Shown here in pieces: positions 46,658-54,465 of a stretch of DNA of 64,000 nucleotides (positions are counted from its first letter, which is position 1; every line of letters begins with the position of its first letter). A model generated the notes under the pieces. The model saw only the letters and a list, made by a program, of their open reading frames with translations, was not told where the DNA came from and ran no database searches. The stretch lies in contig JAJDDT010000097.1 in assembly GCA_029260165.1 (NCBI GenBank), forward strand, positions 11,099-75,098. Direction: 5' to 3'. Position numbers and translations under genes: made by a program. Source of the DNA: Phycisphaerae bacterium (GTDB lineage: Bacteria; Planctomycetota; Phycisphaerae; UBA1845).

Positions 46658-48424
46658 CTACGAAACCGTGGGCAGGAGGCAGACGTCCTGGACGGAATGT
46701 GTCGTCAGCCGCGCAATGGGAAGGACCGCGGACGGTGTGTCCGGGGTGGAGGTTTTCCAGACGAACAGGCGATCGCGTGCTTCGTTGGTAGCGACGATGA
46801 GATCGGCCGCGACTTCGACCCGGCGTAGCGTCTGCCCACCCGCTTCAAATCGACTGATGAACGAATCGTCAATGATGCGTGCAAAGACCGCCGACGACGT
46901 GTCGGTGTAAAACAACCGCTCGATACCATCAAAATCCACCATGAACACCGATTCGCACGAGCGTCGACGTCCCGTGTGGATCACCGTTGGATCGCCCGGG
47001 CGGTCGAGCGACCAGGCGACGACTTCCCCCTCCGCGTTCCCGGCGTAGACATTGCGATCCGTGACACAAACAGCCGTGATGATCGACCTTGATCCCACGA
47101 AAGGCTCCAGATTGGCGCCCTCATCACCGGCGAGCATGCGATAGACGACGTGATCCGCTGAAAAGTAGACACCCGTCGGATGGAACCGGGCACACCGTAC
47201 CGCCTTGGCAGGGTCTGTGACCTCCCGACAAAGACGCCTGGCTGGTTCGTCCGCACGACGGTCCCAAACCAGCAAACCAAGCTCCGAATGCGTCGCGTAG
47301 AGTTGGTCACCCGCAATGGCGACTGAATTCACACCGCCACGAACCTCGCCGACCTCATCCGCCCGATAGGATATCATCTCCCCGCCAAGGTCGGCCGCCA
47401 GCTCGTAAACCCCCACGGACGCACCGATGCACAGTCGTTGTGCACCGTTCGCATCGAGGTAGGTCTGCACGGATCGGATCGGACCTATGTCACCCGCCAC
47501 AGTGATGCGATCTTTCGGCGTATCAGACGAACCGGGTTCAAACGAGAGAAGTTCATCGCCCGAACCGACGATGATGCGATCCGTGGCAAGTGCATTATCG
47601 CATGTTGCAAACAACGCTTCATACAGATGACATCGCTCGGTCTCATCAAACTGCTGAACGAGCGTCGCAAGCGAATCTGACGGCGAAGCCTCCGCCCGCT
47701 CGCGAAGCTGTTCCAACAGGGTCGCAACCCGTTCGGAATTGCTCCGTTCCGCCTGTGCACGCGCTTGTTCGACGCGATCCTTCGCTGAGATTTGTTCACG
47801 CCTGCGCTTCAATTCAGCACGAGTTCGCAACGACTGCCGATACATCGGCGCGTCGATCTGAATGTGAATCTGAGCGTCGATGTGAACCCCCGCACCAAAC
47901 GCCGCGGGTTTGAGCGACTCAAACAGTTCCCCCCCAATCGTCTCGGCATTTTCGGCGTCTATGAGAACACCCACACCCCTCCCGTCCGCCGCACCAGCCA
48001 ACCCCAACGCGATCTGCGGACGAAAATAGTCCGCGACCGTGGAATGATTGGCTGTGTTCGCACTTCCAATTACCCGGTTCCGAAATCCCACCAACTCCGC
48101 AGCCTCCGGAATCAGGTGCACGCGAAGCTCAACGTCAGCATGACACTGATAGTGATCTATCGAATGAACGGCGACGTTGGTGTATTTGAGCGAGAACGTT
48201 CCGGTTCGCACCCAGATGACCTCGGCCACCTCGTCCGACGTAAGGTCCGACCCTGCCGAGCACAAAACGCGATCACCGGTTTTTCGAATGACCACCGCGC
48301 ATTGACCGACCGGCACACGATACGACCGATTCCAGAACCCAAACAAATCCTCCGGATCGACCAGCGCTGCGAGGGCATCCTCGTTCGTGAAAAACGCTTT
48401 GACATCGAATGAATTCGTGGACAT
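46658..48424 (-). CDS. SPFH/Band-7-like domain + coiled coil + beta-propeller protein
   Basis: N-terminal RVPVGQCAVVI...VIWVRTG...HSIDH...DVELRV pattern, charged coiled-coil, WD40-like blades (GSRSIITAVCV...VYAGNAEGEVVAW). Start 48424 avoids overlap with the ATPase. Confidence 0.65.
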   Translation of the reverse strand: MSTNSFDVKAFFTNEDALAALVDPEDLFGFWNRSYRVPVGQCAVVIRKTGDRVLCSAGSDLTSDEVAEVIWVRTGTFSLKYTNVAVHSIDHYQCHADVELRVHLIPEAAELVGFRNRVIGSANTANHSTVADYFRPQIALGLAGAADGRGVGVLIDAENAETIGGELFESLKPAAFGAGVHIDAQIHIQIDAPMYRQSLRTRAELKRRREQISAKDRVEQARAQAERSNSERVATLLEQLRERAEASPSDSLATLVQQFDETERCHLYEALFATCDNALATDRIIVGSGDELLSFEPGSSDTPKDRITVAGDIGPIRSVQTYLDANGAQRLCIGASVGVYELAADLGGEMISYRADEVGEVRGGVNSVAIAGDQLYATHSELGLLVWDRRADEPARRLCREVTDPAKAVRCARFHPTGVYFSADHVVYRMLAGDEGANLEPFVGSRSIITAVCVTDRNVYAGNAEGEVVAWSLDRPGDPTVIHTGRRRSCESVFMVDFDGIERLFYTDTSSAVFARIIDDSFISRFEAGGQTLRRVEVAADLIVATNEARDRLFVWKTSTPDTPSAVLPIARLTTHSVQDVCLLPTVS

Positions 48425-48458
48425 CACAGGCTGCTCTTCGATCGGTATCCGGCCAATT

Positions 48459-49580
48459 TCATGATCCGTCCCCACCAAACGATTCGTATTTGACAAGCGA
48501 AGATTTCTCCACCGACGGCGGAATCACCGCGATCACGCTTTCAAGGTCCTGCATGTTTATCGGACGTGGATCTCGACCGCCAATCGCGTCGGTAAACGGA
48601 ATCGCCGCTGCACGCTGAATGATGTTTCGAATATCAGCACCACTGTAACCCTCTAATTTGTCGCACAACTCACCAAAATCGAGGTCCTCGTCTGCGGGCC
48701 TGTCACCAAAATGAATCTCCAACAATCGAAATCGAGCCGTCGCATCCGGCAGGCCAACGTACACCCTCGTATCCAAACGCCCCGGACGGAGCATGGCTTC
48801 GTCGAGCATCCACGGCTTGTTGGTGGCTCCGATAAAAAGCAACGCCCGATCCGAATCCCGATCAAACCCCTCCAACTCCTGCAAAATCTGAGGCACCACG
48901 CGTTGCATGACCGTCGACGACCCACTGCGGCGCTTCGGCACCAGCGCTTCGCACTCGTCGATGAAAATCACCGACATCGGTTCCTGCCTTGCCGCGTCGA
49001 AGAGCTTGCGAATGTTCTGCTCCGCCTCGCCGACCCACTTGCTCATGATTTGTGCGGGGCTGATGACGAAATAGGTCGCGTTCAGCTCGAACGCGATCGC
49101 CCTGGCCATCATCGTTTTGCCCGTTCCCGGTGGACCATACAGCAGCACACCGCCCCCGAGACCGATCCCGTATCGTTTCGCCAATTCCGGGTGCGACAAT
49201 GGATAGATCATCTTGACGCGGATTTCGTGCTTCACGTCCTCAAGACCGGCGATGTCGTCGAAACCAATATTCGGTTTCTCGCGAACAATCCATTCGGACG
49301 CGTCGCTGCTGTTCTCATCTTCCCTTTCGGATTGAGCACGTCGTCCACCCGACCGTGGCGACACATGCAACCGCTCGCAATCTTTGGCCAACTCGATCAA
49401 TTCCGCGGCCAATTCCTCGTGCTGCCGCCTCGCCTCGTCCGACTTCGTTTCTTCCGCCAGCGAAACCAAACACTCAGCCGCATCAATCAAGTACGCCTTC
49501 GCCGTCAGGTACTCGCCCTTCTGATAGGCAGCCACCCCCCTGGACTTGAGTCGGTCAAATGTGGAAAACGAAACTGACAT
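48459..49580 (-). CDS. Vps4/CdvC-like AAA ATPase with N-terminal MIT-like three-helix domain
   Basis: EKPNIGFDDIAGL, GPPGTGKT, SKWVGEAE, IFIDE, GATNKPW.LD, RPGRLD, GYSGADI, C-terminal PSV....VKYESF; single AAA cassette, 373 aa. Confidence 0.85.
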   Translation of the reverse strand: MSVSFSTFDRLKSRGVAAYQKGEYLTAKAYLIDAAECLVSLAEETKSDEARRQHEELAAELIELAKDCERLHVSPRSGGRRAQSEREDENSSDASEWIVREKPNIGFDDIAGLEDVKHEIRVKMIYPLSHPELAKRYGIGLGGGVLLYGPPGTGKTMMARAIAFELNATYFVISPAQIMSKWVGEAEQNIRKLFDAARQEPMSVIFIDECEALVPKRRSGSSTVMQRVVPQILQELEGFDRDSDRALLFIGATNKPWMLDEAMLRPGRLDTRVYVGLPDATARFRLLEIHFGDRPADEDLDFGELCDKLEGYSGADIRNIIQRAAAIPFTDAIGGRDPRPINMQDLESVIAVIPPSVEKSSLVKYESFGGDGS

Positions 49581-52992: not shown

Positions 52993-54024
52993 TCACGACG
53001 ATCTTACCCGCAAGTCGTTCCCGCAAAAAATACAAAACCGATCGGACGCCCCGACAAAACCATCGCACCGCTGACACCGCGGAACGTGCTCGACCACCTG
53101 AACCCCGCAATGAGTGCAATACTGATCGTCCGCCTTGACGCGTTCGTTGCACGCGGGACATTTTCCCGCACGGCGCGACGATGGTGGAATCGGCGGCGGT
53201 GTGGCTGCCGCAGCCCCAGCGATCGCCTGCTGCATGTTACGCGCGTTCGTGAATCGCCGATCGAGCCGAACGTAGCAACGTCTGAACACATCATCCAACC
53301 AGCCCGGGACATCAGGGCGAAGATCGCTCGGCATCTCCGCACCATGAGGCCTGGACCCCGTCAACATCTCAAACAACACAATACCGCACGAGTACAAATC
53401 CGCCCGACCGTCAACGTCGCGTCCTTCCTTGTGCTCCGGAGCCATGTACGCCAACGTCCCGCCGATACCCGTCTCGCCGTCCTCGCCCACGCTCCCCGAC
53501 TGCATGATCGACTGAGCTGTCACCCCACCGGCCCGACCAAGCCCGAAATCCGTGACCTTCACGCACTGCTCGGTAATCAGGTCCAATTCATCCAAACCAC
53601 GCGTCAGCAGGATATTCGCCGGCTTGACGTCCCGATGGATCACGCCCGCCTCATGCGCAACAGCCAGCGCATTTAACACCCCACGCATGATCGCCACCGC
53701 CGCGTGGATCGGCAGCCCGTTCGGATGCGCGTCGAGCGTTTCCCGCACCGACGCACCCTCCACCAGTTCCATCACCAGGTAAGGCGGATCGCCATACGGA
53801 TCGAGGTCGATCGCCCGCACAATGTTCGGATGACGCAACCCGTGAATCGTCACACCTTCACGCCGCAGATTCTGCACGAAATCCGCGTTGGTCGGGATTT
53901 TGATCGCGACCATCTCATCGAAGACGTGGTGCTTCGCACGCCACACCTGCCCGAAGCTTCCCGATCCAATCGGTGCTTCAAGCAGATAGTTGCTTATCCG
54001 ATCACCTTTTTGCGACAACGTCAT
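52993..54024 (-). CDS. Hanks-type Ser/Thr protein kinase with C-terminal double zinc ribbon
   Basis: GSGSFGQV, VAIK, HRDVKPAN, DFG, YMAPE, DLYSCG; four CxxC pairs at the C-terminus. Confidence 0.96.
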   Translation of the reverse strand: MTLSQKGDRISNYLLEAPIGSGSFGQVWRAKHHVFDEMVAIKIPTNADFVQNLRREGVTIHGLRHPNIVRAIDLDPYGDPPYLVMELVEGASVRETLDAHPNGLPIHAAVAIMRGVLNALAVAHEAGVIHRDVKPANILLTRGLDELDLITEQCVKVTDFGLGRAGGVTAQSIMQSGSVGEDGETGIGGTLAYMAPEHKEGRDVDGRADLYSCGIVLFEMLTGSRPHGAEMPSDLRPDVPGWLDDVFRRCYVRLDRRFTNARNMQQAIAGAAAATPPPIPPSSRRAGKCPACNERVKADDQYCTHCGVQVVEHVPRCQRCDGFVGASDRFCIFCGNDLRVRSS

Positions 54025-54057
54025 TTCCGTCCACAAGACAAAATAGAAAAACCCTCC

Positions 54058-54465
54058 TCACGCGGCGTCATCAATCCTCTCAGCCACGAAATCGCACACC
54101 AGGAAATTATAAACACCCGCCGCAAGGAAACCAACGATGAGCACGACCCACCCGATCGCGTTCGGAACACTCCATCCGCAAAGCCACAACGCCACAACCA
54201 CATCGACCACCATCAACACGACGAGCAATACTGCACTCGCCGCGTTCGAATCCGCCTTCACAACCCTGGCCGTCAGAAAAAACATCCCCCAGGGCAACGC
54301 TGTCGCGAATCCAATCCAGAGAATCGCCCCTTTCACCGCCGCCCACAACGCCTTCGCATCGTCCGGGTGATTCCAGAACCAGATCAAGGACGCCCCAACG
54401 CCAACGACCAGAATCGCGCTAAGCACCTTGCCACCAACATATTTCGACGCCGTCGCCCACATCAT
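54058..54465 (-). CDS. Small four-TM membrane protein
   Basis: Four hydrophobic segments; GGAG RBS; first gene of the kinase/ESCRT-like run. Confidence 0.78.
   Translation of the reverse strand: MMWATASKYVGGKVLSAILVVGVGASLIWFWNHPDDAKALWAAVKGAILWIGFATALPWGMFFLTARVVKADSNAASAVLLVVLMVVDVVVALWLCGWSVPNAIGWVVLIVGFLAAGVYNFLVCDFVAERIDDAA

Follow-up and report, generated by a model that had tools for sequence, protein, structure and literature searches.

A planctomycete gene cluster encoding a Snf7-family protein and a CdvC/Vps4-like AAA ATPase is probably a bacterial ESCRT-III-type membrane-remodeling module

Some bacterial homologs of Snf7 and PspA are encoded with AAA+ ATPases, and ATP-dependent membrane remodeling has been suggested for them by Ravi et al. 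(2024), who also noted Vps4-like ATPases in a few bacteria (PMC11237479). In the portions of two further publications drawn on here, Liu et al. (2021) left open whether bacterial ESCRT-III relatives have an equivalent ATPase (PMC8281802), and a 2025 review stated that a Vps4-like ATPase appears to be absent in bacteria, where ESCRT-III relatives are regulated otherwise (PMC7619361). In this report, we describe a cluster of nine genes in a 64,000-nucleotide stretch of DNA from a Phycisphaerae bacterium (GenBank assembly GCA_029260165.1, contig JAJDDT010000097.1, positions 11,099 to 75,098 of the forward strand), a stretch that we refer to as the window. The cluster encodes a protein of the Snf7/ESCRT-III family together with an AAA ATPase that resembles CdvC and Vps4, a pairing that bacteria are said to lack in the cited portion of the 2025 review (PMC7619361).

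The bacterial cases described by Ravi et al. differ from this cluster. They comprise a Vps4-like ATPase in a setting in which the Snf7 gene is displaced by a protein with TPR repeats and six transmembrane (TM) segments, a two-domain AAA+ protein with PspA, and TM-bearing Snf7/PspA proteins with genes for an ABC transporter and OmpA/PBPB (PMC11237479). In the main text of that paper the word "Planctomycetes" occurs 0 times, and an architecture of kinase, PspC, helical fusion protein and SPFH-propeller protein is not described (PMC11237479). Our literature searches turned up no account of an ESCRT-III/Vps4 system in planctomycetes, although the supplementary tables of PMC11237479 and PMC10936438 may list such loci. 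A preliminary description of this DNA, made by reading the letters, could not say whether loci of this kind had already been cataloged; the general association of Snf7/PspA with AAA+ proteins had indeed been noted in 2024 (PMC11237479), in neighborhoods that are different from the one reported here.

We consider it likely, with a probability of about two in three, that the cluster is a bacterial ESCRT-III-type membrane-remodeling module with its own CdvC/Vps4-like AAA ATPase, situated in a Psp-like envelope context. The grounds for this reading are the family assignments of the encoded proteins, the intact catalytic motifs of the ATPase, and the linkage and co-occurrence of the genes. The nine genes, designated g1 to g9, are as follows (aa, amino acids).

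g1, 54058..54483, minus strand: small membrane protein of 141 aa with about four TM segments by hydropathy; an end at 54465, given previously, is an internal ATG
g2, 52993..54036, minus strand: Hanks-type Ser/Thr kinase of 347 aa with a C-terminal double zinc ribbon (Pkinase 5.6e-39, DZR 2.8e-6)
g3, 52732..52968, minus strand: single-TM protein of 78 aa with a C-terminal zinc ribbon (weak Pfam zinc-ribbon matches, one hydrophobic segment)
g4, 51311..52762, minus strand: two-part protein of 483 aa; the N-terminal ~265 aa are an uncharacterized domain, residues ~270-445 are helical and ESCRT-III-like, and an acidic tail follows
g5, 50678..51289, minus strand: helical protein of 203 aa, probably a divergent ESCRT-III-like subunit; N-terminus M-x-L-x-D-W-L, basic half then acidic half
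g6, 50470..50664, minus strand: PspC-domain membrane protein of 64 aa with one TM segment (PF04024 1.2e-24, TIGR02978 1.8e-14)
g7, 49837..50445, minus strand: Snf7/ESCRT-III-family protein by profile and predicted fold, 202 aa from the likely start ATG at 50445
g8, 48459..49580, minus strand: single-cassette classical AAA ATPase of 373 aa, "type A" (AAA PF00004 7.9e-40, AAA_lid_3, sub-threshold Vps4_C)
g9, 46658..48496, minus strand: protein of 612 aa with an SPFH/Band-7-like N-terminal half and a C-terminal WD40-type beta-propeller; no TM segment

In an open reading frame (ORF) listing of positions 44000-57500, all nine genes lie on the minus strand at 46658-54483, in the number, strand and place reported in the preliminary description, which had pointed out nine co-directional and mostly tightly spaced genes. 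Neighboring genes overlap or are separated by gaps of 6-24 nt throughout, the sole exception being a gap of 256 nt between g7 and g8. The stop of g3 overlaps the likely start of g4, the overlap being ATGA with the 10th codon of g4 taken as its start, which is where g4 orthologs begin. The ORF of g7 opens at TTG 50463 (49837-50463, 208 aa). The GC content of 0.55-0.59 is the same as that of the flanks. Scans for promoter and terminator consensus sequences gave about as many matches as chance would (4 seen versus 4.7 expected; 13 seen versus 12.9 expected).

Evidence that g7 is an ESCRT-III protein came from its family. Exhaustive searching of 1.84 billion representatives with HMMER yielded 309 relatives of g7 at E <= 0.001, and an alignment of 54 family members (alignment A1) was used as a profile against PDB sequences. 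Six different ESCRT-III proteins are among the 20 matches of this profile, collinear over ~130-160 residues: CHMP2A (1.4e-5, 132 collinear positions), CHMP3 (6e-4), Snf7 (0.0078), CHMP1B (0.013), CdvB2 (0.07) and CdvB. No PspA or Vipp1 chain is among the matches listed. The Pfam Snf7 model (PF03357) matches 13 of the 54 relatives at E <= 0.01, the best at 1.1e-7. The same model has no match anywhere in the window genome at E <= 1, and none of its matches exceeds the cut-off in 14 control genomes either, Sulfolobus included. Searches of the PDB with the single sequences of g7, g5 and g4 gave no match, nor did single sequences searched against the g7 profile.

Structure prediction for g7 agrees with the profile. 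AlphaFold2, supplied with alignment A1, gave a model (pLDDT 83.4) with helices at residues 7-49, 52-110, 116-149 and 162-201, which is the ESCRT-III order. As modeled, g7 has the shape expected of ESCRT-III: a long hairpin of alpha1 and alpha2/3 followed by alpha4 and alpha5, a length of ~200 aa, a basic core and an acidic tail. In a Foldseek search with this model, ranks 1-11 are all ESCRT-III proteins (CHMP2A/3, CHMP1B, Loki CHMP4-7 and Asgard ESCRT-IIIB), with no row at E <= 0.001. Within the family, the N-terminus MGLFKS is invariant, and a conserved acidic motif, VSDxEIDxLI, is followed by an amphipathic C-terminal helix. This acidic tail and terminal helix resemble the tails of eukaryotic ESCRT-III proteins that bear MIT-interacting motifs. 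By profile and by predicted fold, then, g7 belongs to the Snf7/ESCRT-III family and has the hairpin that the preliminary description had looked for in its helical proteins.

Several g7 relatives have other domain architectures. P0098, P0105, P0126 and similar proteins (429-511 aa) carry a g7-like, Snf7-type N-domain fused to a C-terminal P-loop domain that by eye looks FtsK/HerA-like (GxxGSGKS/T) and would represent ESCRT-III paired with a different ATPase; a lead from the ESM Atlas suggests Bacillota as the source of fusions of the P0098 type. P0060 and P0082 (~420 aa) join an uncharacterized N-domain of ~220 aa to a g7-type domain with the g7-like tail end LRAELDALR. The N-domain of g4 is not shared by P0060 or P0098. 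Further ESM Atlas clusters, to be taken as leads only, are from Planctomycetota, with Snf7-annotated minorities in clusters of Chloroflexota and Lentisphaerota.

A second family of helical proteins is represented by g5 and by the C-terminal half of g4 (g4C). Because the g5 family aligns with g4 in hhalign with a probability of 94.8% (E 5e-8, g5 residues 1-154 on g4 residues 274-421), the two are judged to be paralogs of each other. A combined g5+g4C profile (alignment A7, 28 rows) aligns with the g7 family at 85.5% (E 5.7e-6, 122 collinear columns), and the AlphaFold2 model of g5 (pLDDT 76.9) has a hairpin at residues 19-56/60-110. These results suggest that g5 and g4C probably form a second, divergent ESCRT-III-like family that is remotely related to g7. 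All of the helical parts are basic in their first 110 residues and acidic in the remainder (+12/-15 in g7, +10/-11 in g5, and +5/-16 in g4 residues 270-483). Close relatives of g5 carry no annotation beyond that of a hypothetical protein, and they come from metagenome-assembled genomes of Phycisphaerae, Phycisphaerales or Planctomycetota. The N-terminal ~265 aa of g4 have weak helix-turn-helix-type matches near residues 197-260, and this N-domain is a separate gene (~210-310 aa) in 14 of 20 loci from across the phylum. Two distant planctomycetes have three tandem g5/g4C-family genes upstream of the ATPase gene and the g7 gene (L037, 5704-7733; L042, 5834-8334), which is a local expansion of this second helical family.

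The preliminary description had counted three ESCRT-III paralogs, one of them a Snf7-like domain within the g4 fusion. That count is secure for g7 and overstated for the other two, which are probable only (hhalign 85.5%): g4C is helical and paralogous to g5, its tie to ESCRT-III is a probable one, and the hairpin predicted for g5 is of a generic kind.

The cluster is a single-copy, vertically conserved locus. Of 40 relatives belonging to the same genus, family or order, 36 have an ortholog of g8 (56-85% identity), and the four same-order relatives that have none (72-97% complete) are also without g7. Eleven of 14 same-order loci retain the gene order g2-g4-g5-g7-g8-g9, at protein identities of 27-89%, and because it recurs in this way the arrangement is not a matter of chance. 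In the same 14 loci, g1 is syntenic in 10, g2 is adjacent in 11, g6 (PspC) is detected by tblastn in five, and g9 directly follows g8 in 13. The distance between g7 and g8 is ~2.9 kb in two relatives, and g8-g9 are unlinked from the rest in three loci; the three genomes concerned carry g7 at another place.

The association extends beyond the order. In 301 evenly drawn Planctomycetota genomes, for which co-occurrence was counted by hand and kin are not independent, the g7 profile matches 60 genomes, a full-length family ATPase is found at E <= 1e-100 in 60, and both are present in 58. The exceptions are G050 and G309, which have the ATPase only; G132, in which a full-length ATPase next to g7 scores 1.3e-88; and G225, which is fragmented. 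At 20 distant loci with g7 homologs, an AAA relative lies within ~9 kb in 17 and on another contig in the remaining three, a g4-N-like gene is present in 14, a kinase in eight, and a g9-like gene in eight. Co-occurrence in other genomes, on which the preliminary description had made its interpretation depend, is therefore found within the order (11/14), across the phylum (58/60) and at distant loci (17/20). As to the two genomes with the ATPase only, G309 (98% complete) has an ATPase at 1e-107 and no detectable g7 and is the sole genome of the same class but another order with such an ATPase, and G050 (66% complete) has one at 1.2e-141, again with no detectable g7.

Outside Planctomycetota, a g7 homolog was found in one of 251 Chloroflexota genomes. 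Its locus (L150; G362:C413, 413-5227, on a contig of 6.6 kb) contains a gene of the g5/g4C family (94.4% in hhalign), an AAA gene, a g7-like gene and a gene for a 671-aa Ser/Thr kinase. This single occurrence suggests horizontal spread. Hidden Markov models (HMMs) of g7 and of g5/g4C found no relatives in five genomes of other phyla, nor in 80 named AAA loci except for one planctomycete locus.

The ATPase g8 has CdvC as its best NCBIfam model (240.6 bits, residues 15-367 on model positions 18-363 of 370), and CdvC is the sole NCBIfam model that covers both the N- and C-terminal parts of the protein. A phmmer search of the PDB with g8 is dominated by two-domain Cdc48/p97 proteins. In an alignment of 30 relatives (alignment A4), the Walker A motif GPPGTGKT, the DE of Walker B, the TN sensor and the arginine residues are invariant, and g8 has a KW pore loop, SKW(V)GE; judging from these motifs, g8 appears catalytically intact. 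Vps4_C (PF09336) matches 20 of 30 family members, the best at 1.4e-7, and g8 itself reaches 18.6 bits against a cut-off of 21.3 (E 0.0019). The N-terminal ~80 aa of g8 are three predicted helical segments of TPR/MIT-like character, and a profile of this N-domain matches TPR designs and one MIT domain (2mpk, E 0.0032) in the PDB. A predicted complex of g8 residues 1-85 with g7 residues 150-202 scored 0.31 against a mark of 0.32 and was not used as evidence either way. The Vps4-like ATPase with an N-terminal three-helix domain of the preliminary description is borne out in its CdvC/Vps4 architecture, and its three-helix domain is at most a candidate MIT domain (Pfam MIT matches 1 of 30 N-termini).

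The 30 relatives are of two types. Type A, to which g8 belongs, has the motifs SKWVGEAEQ and RPGR(L/F)D. Type B has SKYFGES, SRFEKxILIPLPD, an insertion before the C-terminal helix and a terminal RYLDW, and we take its motifs to be closer to those of Vps4 and the meiotic clade. In several genomes (L032, L034, L039, L040, L042, L043 and L044), one ATPase of each type, or two of type B, flank the g7 homolog; the window genome has type A only.

For phylogenetic analysis, reference domains were taken from named archaeal and bacterial loci found by a profile scan with the ATPase alignment. They include CdvC of Acidianus, Desulfurococcaceae, Nitrososphaerota and Nitrosopumilus, Vps4 of Promethearchaeum, Cdc48 D1 and D2, PAN and FtsH; the best named ATPase loci are from Phycisphaerae or "Planctomycetales". 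An IQ-TREE analysis of 85 rows under the C20 mixture separates 16 type A domains, 12 type B domains, seven CdvC/Vps4 domains and one Bacilli protein from 49 Cdc48 D1/D2, PAN and FtsH domains with support of 100/94, type B joining CdvC/Vps4 at 95/75. A quick tree agrees with this split, which also recurs (100/95) in a reduced set of 36 rows analyzed under LG+G4; in that set, 49 of the 85 rows were dropped, 4-7 per group were kept, and the long-branch L041, L094 and L040 were omitted. The CdvC/Vps4-like character of g8 is thus well supported as an architecture. The Bacilli protein (L094, an uncultured Bacilli record, 6052-6858) is of 604 aa and sits on a long branch, its C-terminal AAA domain joining type A with support of 98/92; no relative of g7 or g5 was found in the L094 locus or its genome.

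The remaining proteins supply the Psp-like context and possible regulators. The four-TM protein, the kinase with a double zinc ribbon, the TM-zinc ribbon protein and the PspC protein named in the preliminary description were recovered as g1 (about four hydrophobic segments; no Pfam or NCBIfam family matched), g2 (Pkinase 5.6e-39 and DZR 2.8e-6, with HRD and DFG motifs visible in the translation), g3 (one TM segment and weak zinc-ribbon matches) and g6 (PF04024, 1.2e-24). An SPFH-like/propeller protein had also been proposed. The C-terminal half of g9 is a WD40-type propeller because its family profile matches a designed eight-blade propeller (8.4e-23) and the WD40 domain of FBXW7 (4.5e-10) in the PDB. 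The SPFH half is weak in the window protein, for which Band_7 gives E 0.01 and 16.3 bits against a Pfam cut-off of 23.6; six of 18 relatives match, the best at 1.1e-5.

The window genome (4.43 Mb, 100% complete) has no match to PspA_IM30 (PF04012) at E <= 0.01, a control that is positive in nine of 14 genomes, and no match to FtsZ, a control that is positive in 13 of 14. The wiring to Psp components that had been proposed is reflected in a genome that encodes PspC (g6) and in which no PspA was found. The host had been guessed to be a planctomycete lacking FtsZ, a guess that fits because the relatives are named Phycisphaerae or Planctomycetota, and the FtsZ search came back empty.

From these data we infer how such a module might polymerize, be recognized by its ATPase and be disassembled. 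Subunits of the g7 type and the g5/g4C type would co-polymerize on the cytoplasmic face of the inner membrane, contacting it through their basic N-terminal hairpins and short N-terminal anchors of the MGLF type. The membrane proteins g1, g3 and PspC, together with the SPFH-propeller protein g9, may recruit or nucleate the polymer where the membrane is stressed or curved, and g4 could be a subunit that brings its own adaptor, the N-domain. The kinase g2 would be a switch that gates assembly by phosphorylation. The N-domain of g8 would bind the conserved acidic C-terminal tails, and the KW pore loop would thread subunits, so disassembling or remodeling the polymer as Vps4 and CdvC do. Membrane repair or maintenance, in place of PspA, is the most likely physiological role, and it is the most economical one because PspA is missing and PspC is kept. 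A part in cutting membranes during division or vesiculation is a less likely possibility.

The main lines of the preliminary interpretation are upheld, and none of the three outcomes that it had named as contrary (helical proteins without the ESCRT-III hairpin, an ATPase N-terminus unlike MIT, genes that do not co-occur elsewhere) was encountered. Even so, a number of results weigh against the reading of the cluster as an ESCRT-III module with a disassembly ATPase, and they are given here with the alternatives to which they lend weight.

Those that concern the ATPase begin with its score of 240.6 bits, far under the cut-off of 650 of the CdvC model (NF041006), although the Asgard Vps4 of Promethearchaeum, at 278.9 bits, is likewise under it. 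In NCBIfam comparisons, the CDC48 model scores at least as high as CdvC in five of six other members of the family that were tested. We assume the RPGR of type A, in the arginine-finger region, to be the Cdc48/PAN form and not the Vps4 form. Pfam MIT matches one of 30 N-termini (0/20 and 1/10), and TPR_2 matches eight of 20. Forcing type A together with Cdc48-D2 in the 36-row set costs 21.4 log-likelihood units, with a p value in the approximately unbiased test (p-AU) of 0.054, and so is not rejected at 0.05. Because the AAA tree is unrooted and is without rows for eukaryotic Vps4, katanin, spastin or other meiotic-clade proteins, a CdvC/Vps4-like ancestry of g8 is likely rather than settled.

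Such results would suit an envelope-stress module akin to Psp, with the helical proteins as passive, PspA-like scaffolds and the AAA protein as a Cdc48-like or Msp1-like extractor or unfoldase of membrane or kinase substrates, not a polymer-disassembly motor. PspC is present and PspA was not found, the CDC48 and PAN models score about as CdvC does on the AAA module, the affinity of type A for Cdc48-D2 stands at the p-AU given above, and an MIT fold is no more than possible for the g8 N-domain. The ATPase is also somewhat apart: g8-g9 are 256 nt from g1-g7, ~2.9 kb away in two relatives and unlinked in three of 14 loci. However, g7 and the ATPase occur together in 58 of the 60 positive genomes among the 301, and they are adjacent in most lineages as well as on the Chloroflexota contig. 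Vps4_C is found in 20 of 30 ATPase relatives, the CdvC model aligns over the full length, and the tail of g7 is strongly conserved, as a recognition motif would be. We therefore judge a passive scaffold served by an extractor to be unlikely.

Distribution also weighs against a broad role for the ESCRT-III module. The g7 profile finds no match in 16 genomes of the same class outside the order and matches only 60 of 301 in the phylum, so the module is not a universal planctomycete machine, and this patchiness argues against a general role in division. It is doubtful that the module, in a lineage without FtsZ, is a scission machine for division or for internal or outer vesicles, a bacterial counterpart of Cdv in which types A and B mark either an ancient bacterial origin of Vps4 or an early transfer of the whole unit from archaea to bacteria.

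The last group of contrary results concerns the helical proteins. The E-values of the g7 profile in the PDB are modest, and the unrelated coiled-coil chain 4dvz, matched at 3.9e-4, shows the noise level of that search. The g7 protein of the window has no Pfam Snf7 match of its own at E <= 1, and its assignment rests on the family profile. For the second family, g5 alone reaches 32% and g4 alone 6.6% against the g7 family in hhalign; neither g5 nor g4C has a significant PDB match, the combined profile giving CdvB at E 0.41; and Pfam Snf7 and PspA match 0 of 21 g5 relatives and 0 of 12 g4 relatives. In Foldseek and VIA searches, the g5 model resembles PspA about as much as it does BAR domains, IpaB or CT398, and Shrub and CHMP4B match it no better; the g5/g4C family was seen in only two of the 20 phylum loci.

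An alternative is that the helical proteins are lineage-specific coiled coils, ESCRT-III-like in composition only, within a kinase-controlled signaling or scaffold system. The window proteins g4, g5 and g7 have no family match of their own in Pfam or NCBIfam, structure searches give many unrelated hairpins at similar Z, and low-complexity helical profiles can match spuriously, as one of the PDB matches of g7 does. Yet CHMP2A, CHMP3, Snf7, CHMP1B, CdvB2 and CdvB are all among the 20 matches, collinear over ~130-160 residues; Pfam Snf7 is found in 13 of 54 g7 relatives at E <= 0.01, and the first 11 Foldseek rows are ESCRT-III. The partner ATPase is, moreover, of the kind that partners ESCRT-III in archaea. 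Coiled coils of independent origin are in our estimation quite improbable.

We reject as very improbable an anti-phage defense or other accessory island combining a Ser/Thr kinase with an AAA ATPase: the kinase does match the PD-T4-6 and Mad6 models and the ATPase the IetA and IteA models, but these matches are generic and at the level of domains, the other seven proteins have 0 PADLOC matches, the locus is single-copy and vertical (ortholog in 36/40 relatives, identity falling with kinship), and its GC content of 0.55-0.59 is that of the flanks, unlike a patchy defense island.

Directly upstream of the cluster, at 54637-57219 on the minus strand, are genes for a HAMP-GGDEF diguanylate cyclase-like protein (454 aa, two TM segments) and for a 346-aa protein with two TM segments and a long helical region. 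Both are syntenic with the cluster in four of 14 same-order loci (L013, L014, L016 and L026) and may belong to its regulatory neighborhood. On the other side, at 42555-45086 on the plus strand, is a gene for an 843-aa protein with a signal-like N-terminus and C-terminal Cys-rich repeats (CGDG/CDDG) ahead of a hydrophobic anchor. This gene converges with the downstream neighbor of the cluster and seems unrelated to the cluster.

Roughly one in five of the Planctomycetota sampled has the cluster, as does at least one genome from Chloroflexota. Should it be the ESCRT-III-type module that we propose, ESCRT-III dynamics driven by ATP could be studied in a bacterial model, the time at which ESCRT-III and Vps4 became partners could be tested, and there would be a candidate for repairing or severing membranes in bacteria without FtsZ and PspA. 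The kinase, PspC and the SPFH-propeller protein point to regulation whose logic is directly testable.

Among known systems, Cdc48/VAT and PAN share with g8 the motifs of classical-clade AAA proteins and give similar HMM scores on the AAA module. Unlike them, g8 has a single cassette, is without double-psi barrel or coiled-coil N-domains, has the Vps4_C helix and falls on the other side of the tree split (100/94). The bacterial Psp/Vipp1 systems (PspA-PspB-PspC-PspF, LiaH/LiaI) are similar in combining an effector of the ESCRT-III superfamily with a PspC membrane protein in an envelope context, and the SPFH and zinc-ribbon partners recall PspA loci of the B. subtilis ydjFGHL type, as these appear in the portions of the sources drawn on (PMC11237479; PMC10936438). 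In contrast to those systems, the effector here is of the Snf7 type, with CHMPs and Snf7 as its PDB matches and no PspA_IM30 in the genome, and the ATPase is a classical-clade AAA protein of CdvC/Vps4 architecture, whereas PspF of Psp is a sigma-54 activator.

The archaeal Cdv and Asgard ESCRT-III-Vps4 systems differ from the cluster in several respects. Its host is bacterial, it is without CdvA, and no ESCRT-I or ESCRT-II protein was recognized; g8 is far below the CdvC cut-off and has at most a putative MIT domain, and the CdvB genes next to the archaeal CdvC loci escaped detection by the g7 profile at E <= 1e-3. Its partners are bacterial ones: PspC, a Hanks kinase with zinc ribbons and an SPFH-WD40 fusion. 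As in the Cdv and Asgard systems, one or more ~200-aa basic-then-acidic subunits are encoded beside a single-cassette AAA protein of ~370 aa, which combines a small helical N-domain with a Vps4_C helix and stands on the CdvC/Vps4 side of the tree. Two distinct subunit families are neighbors, a further domain is found upstream, either fused or adjacent, and, as in some archaeal loci described in the portion of the source used here, an SPFH protein is found in the neighborhood (PMC10936438).

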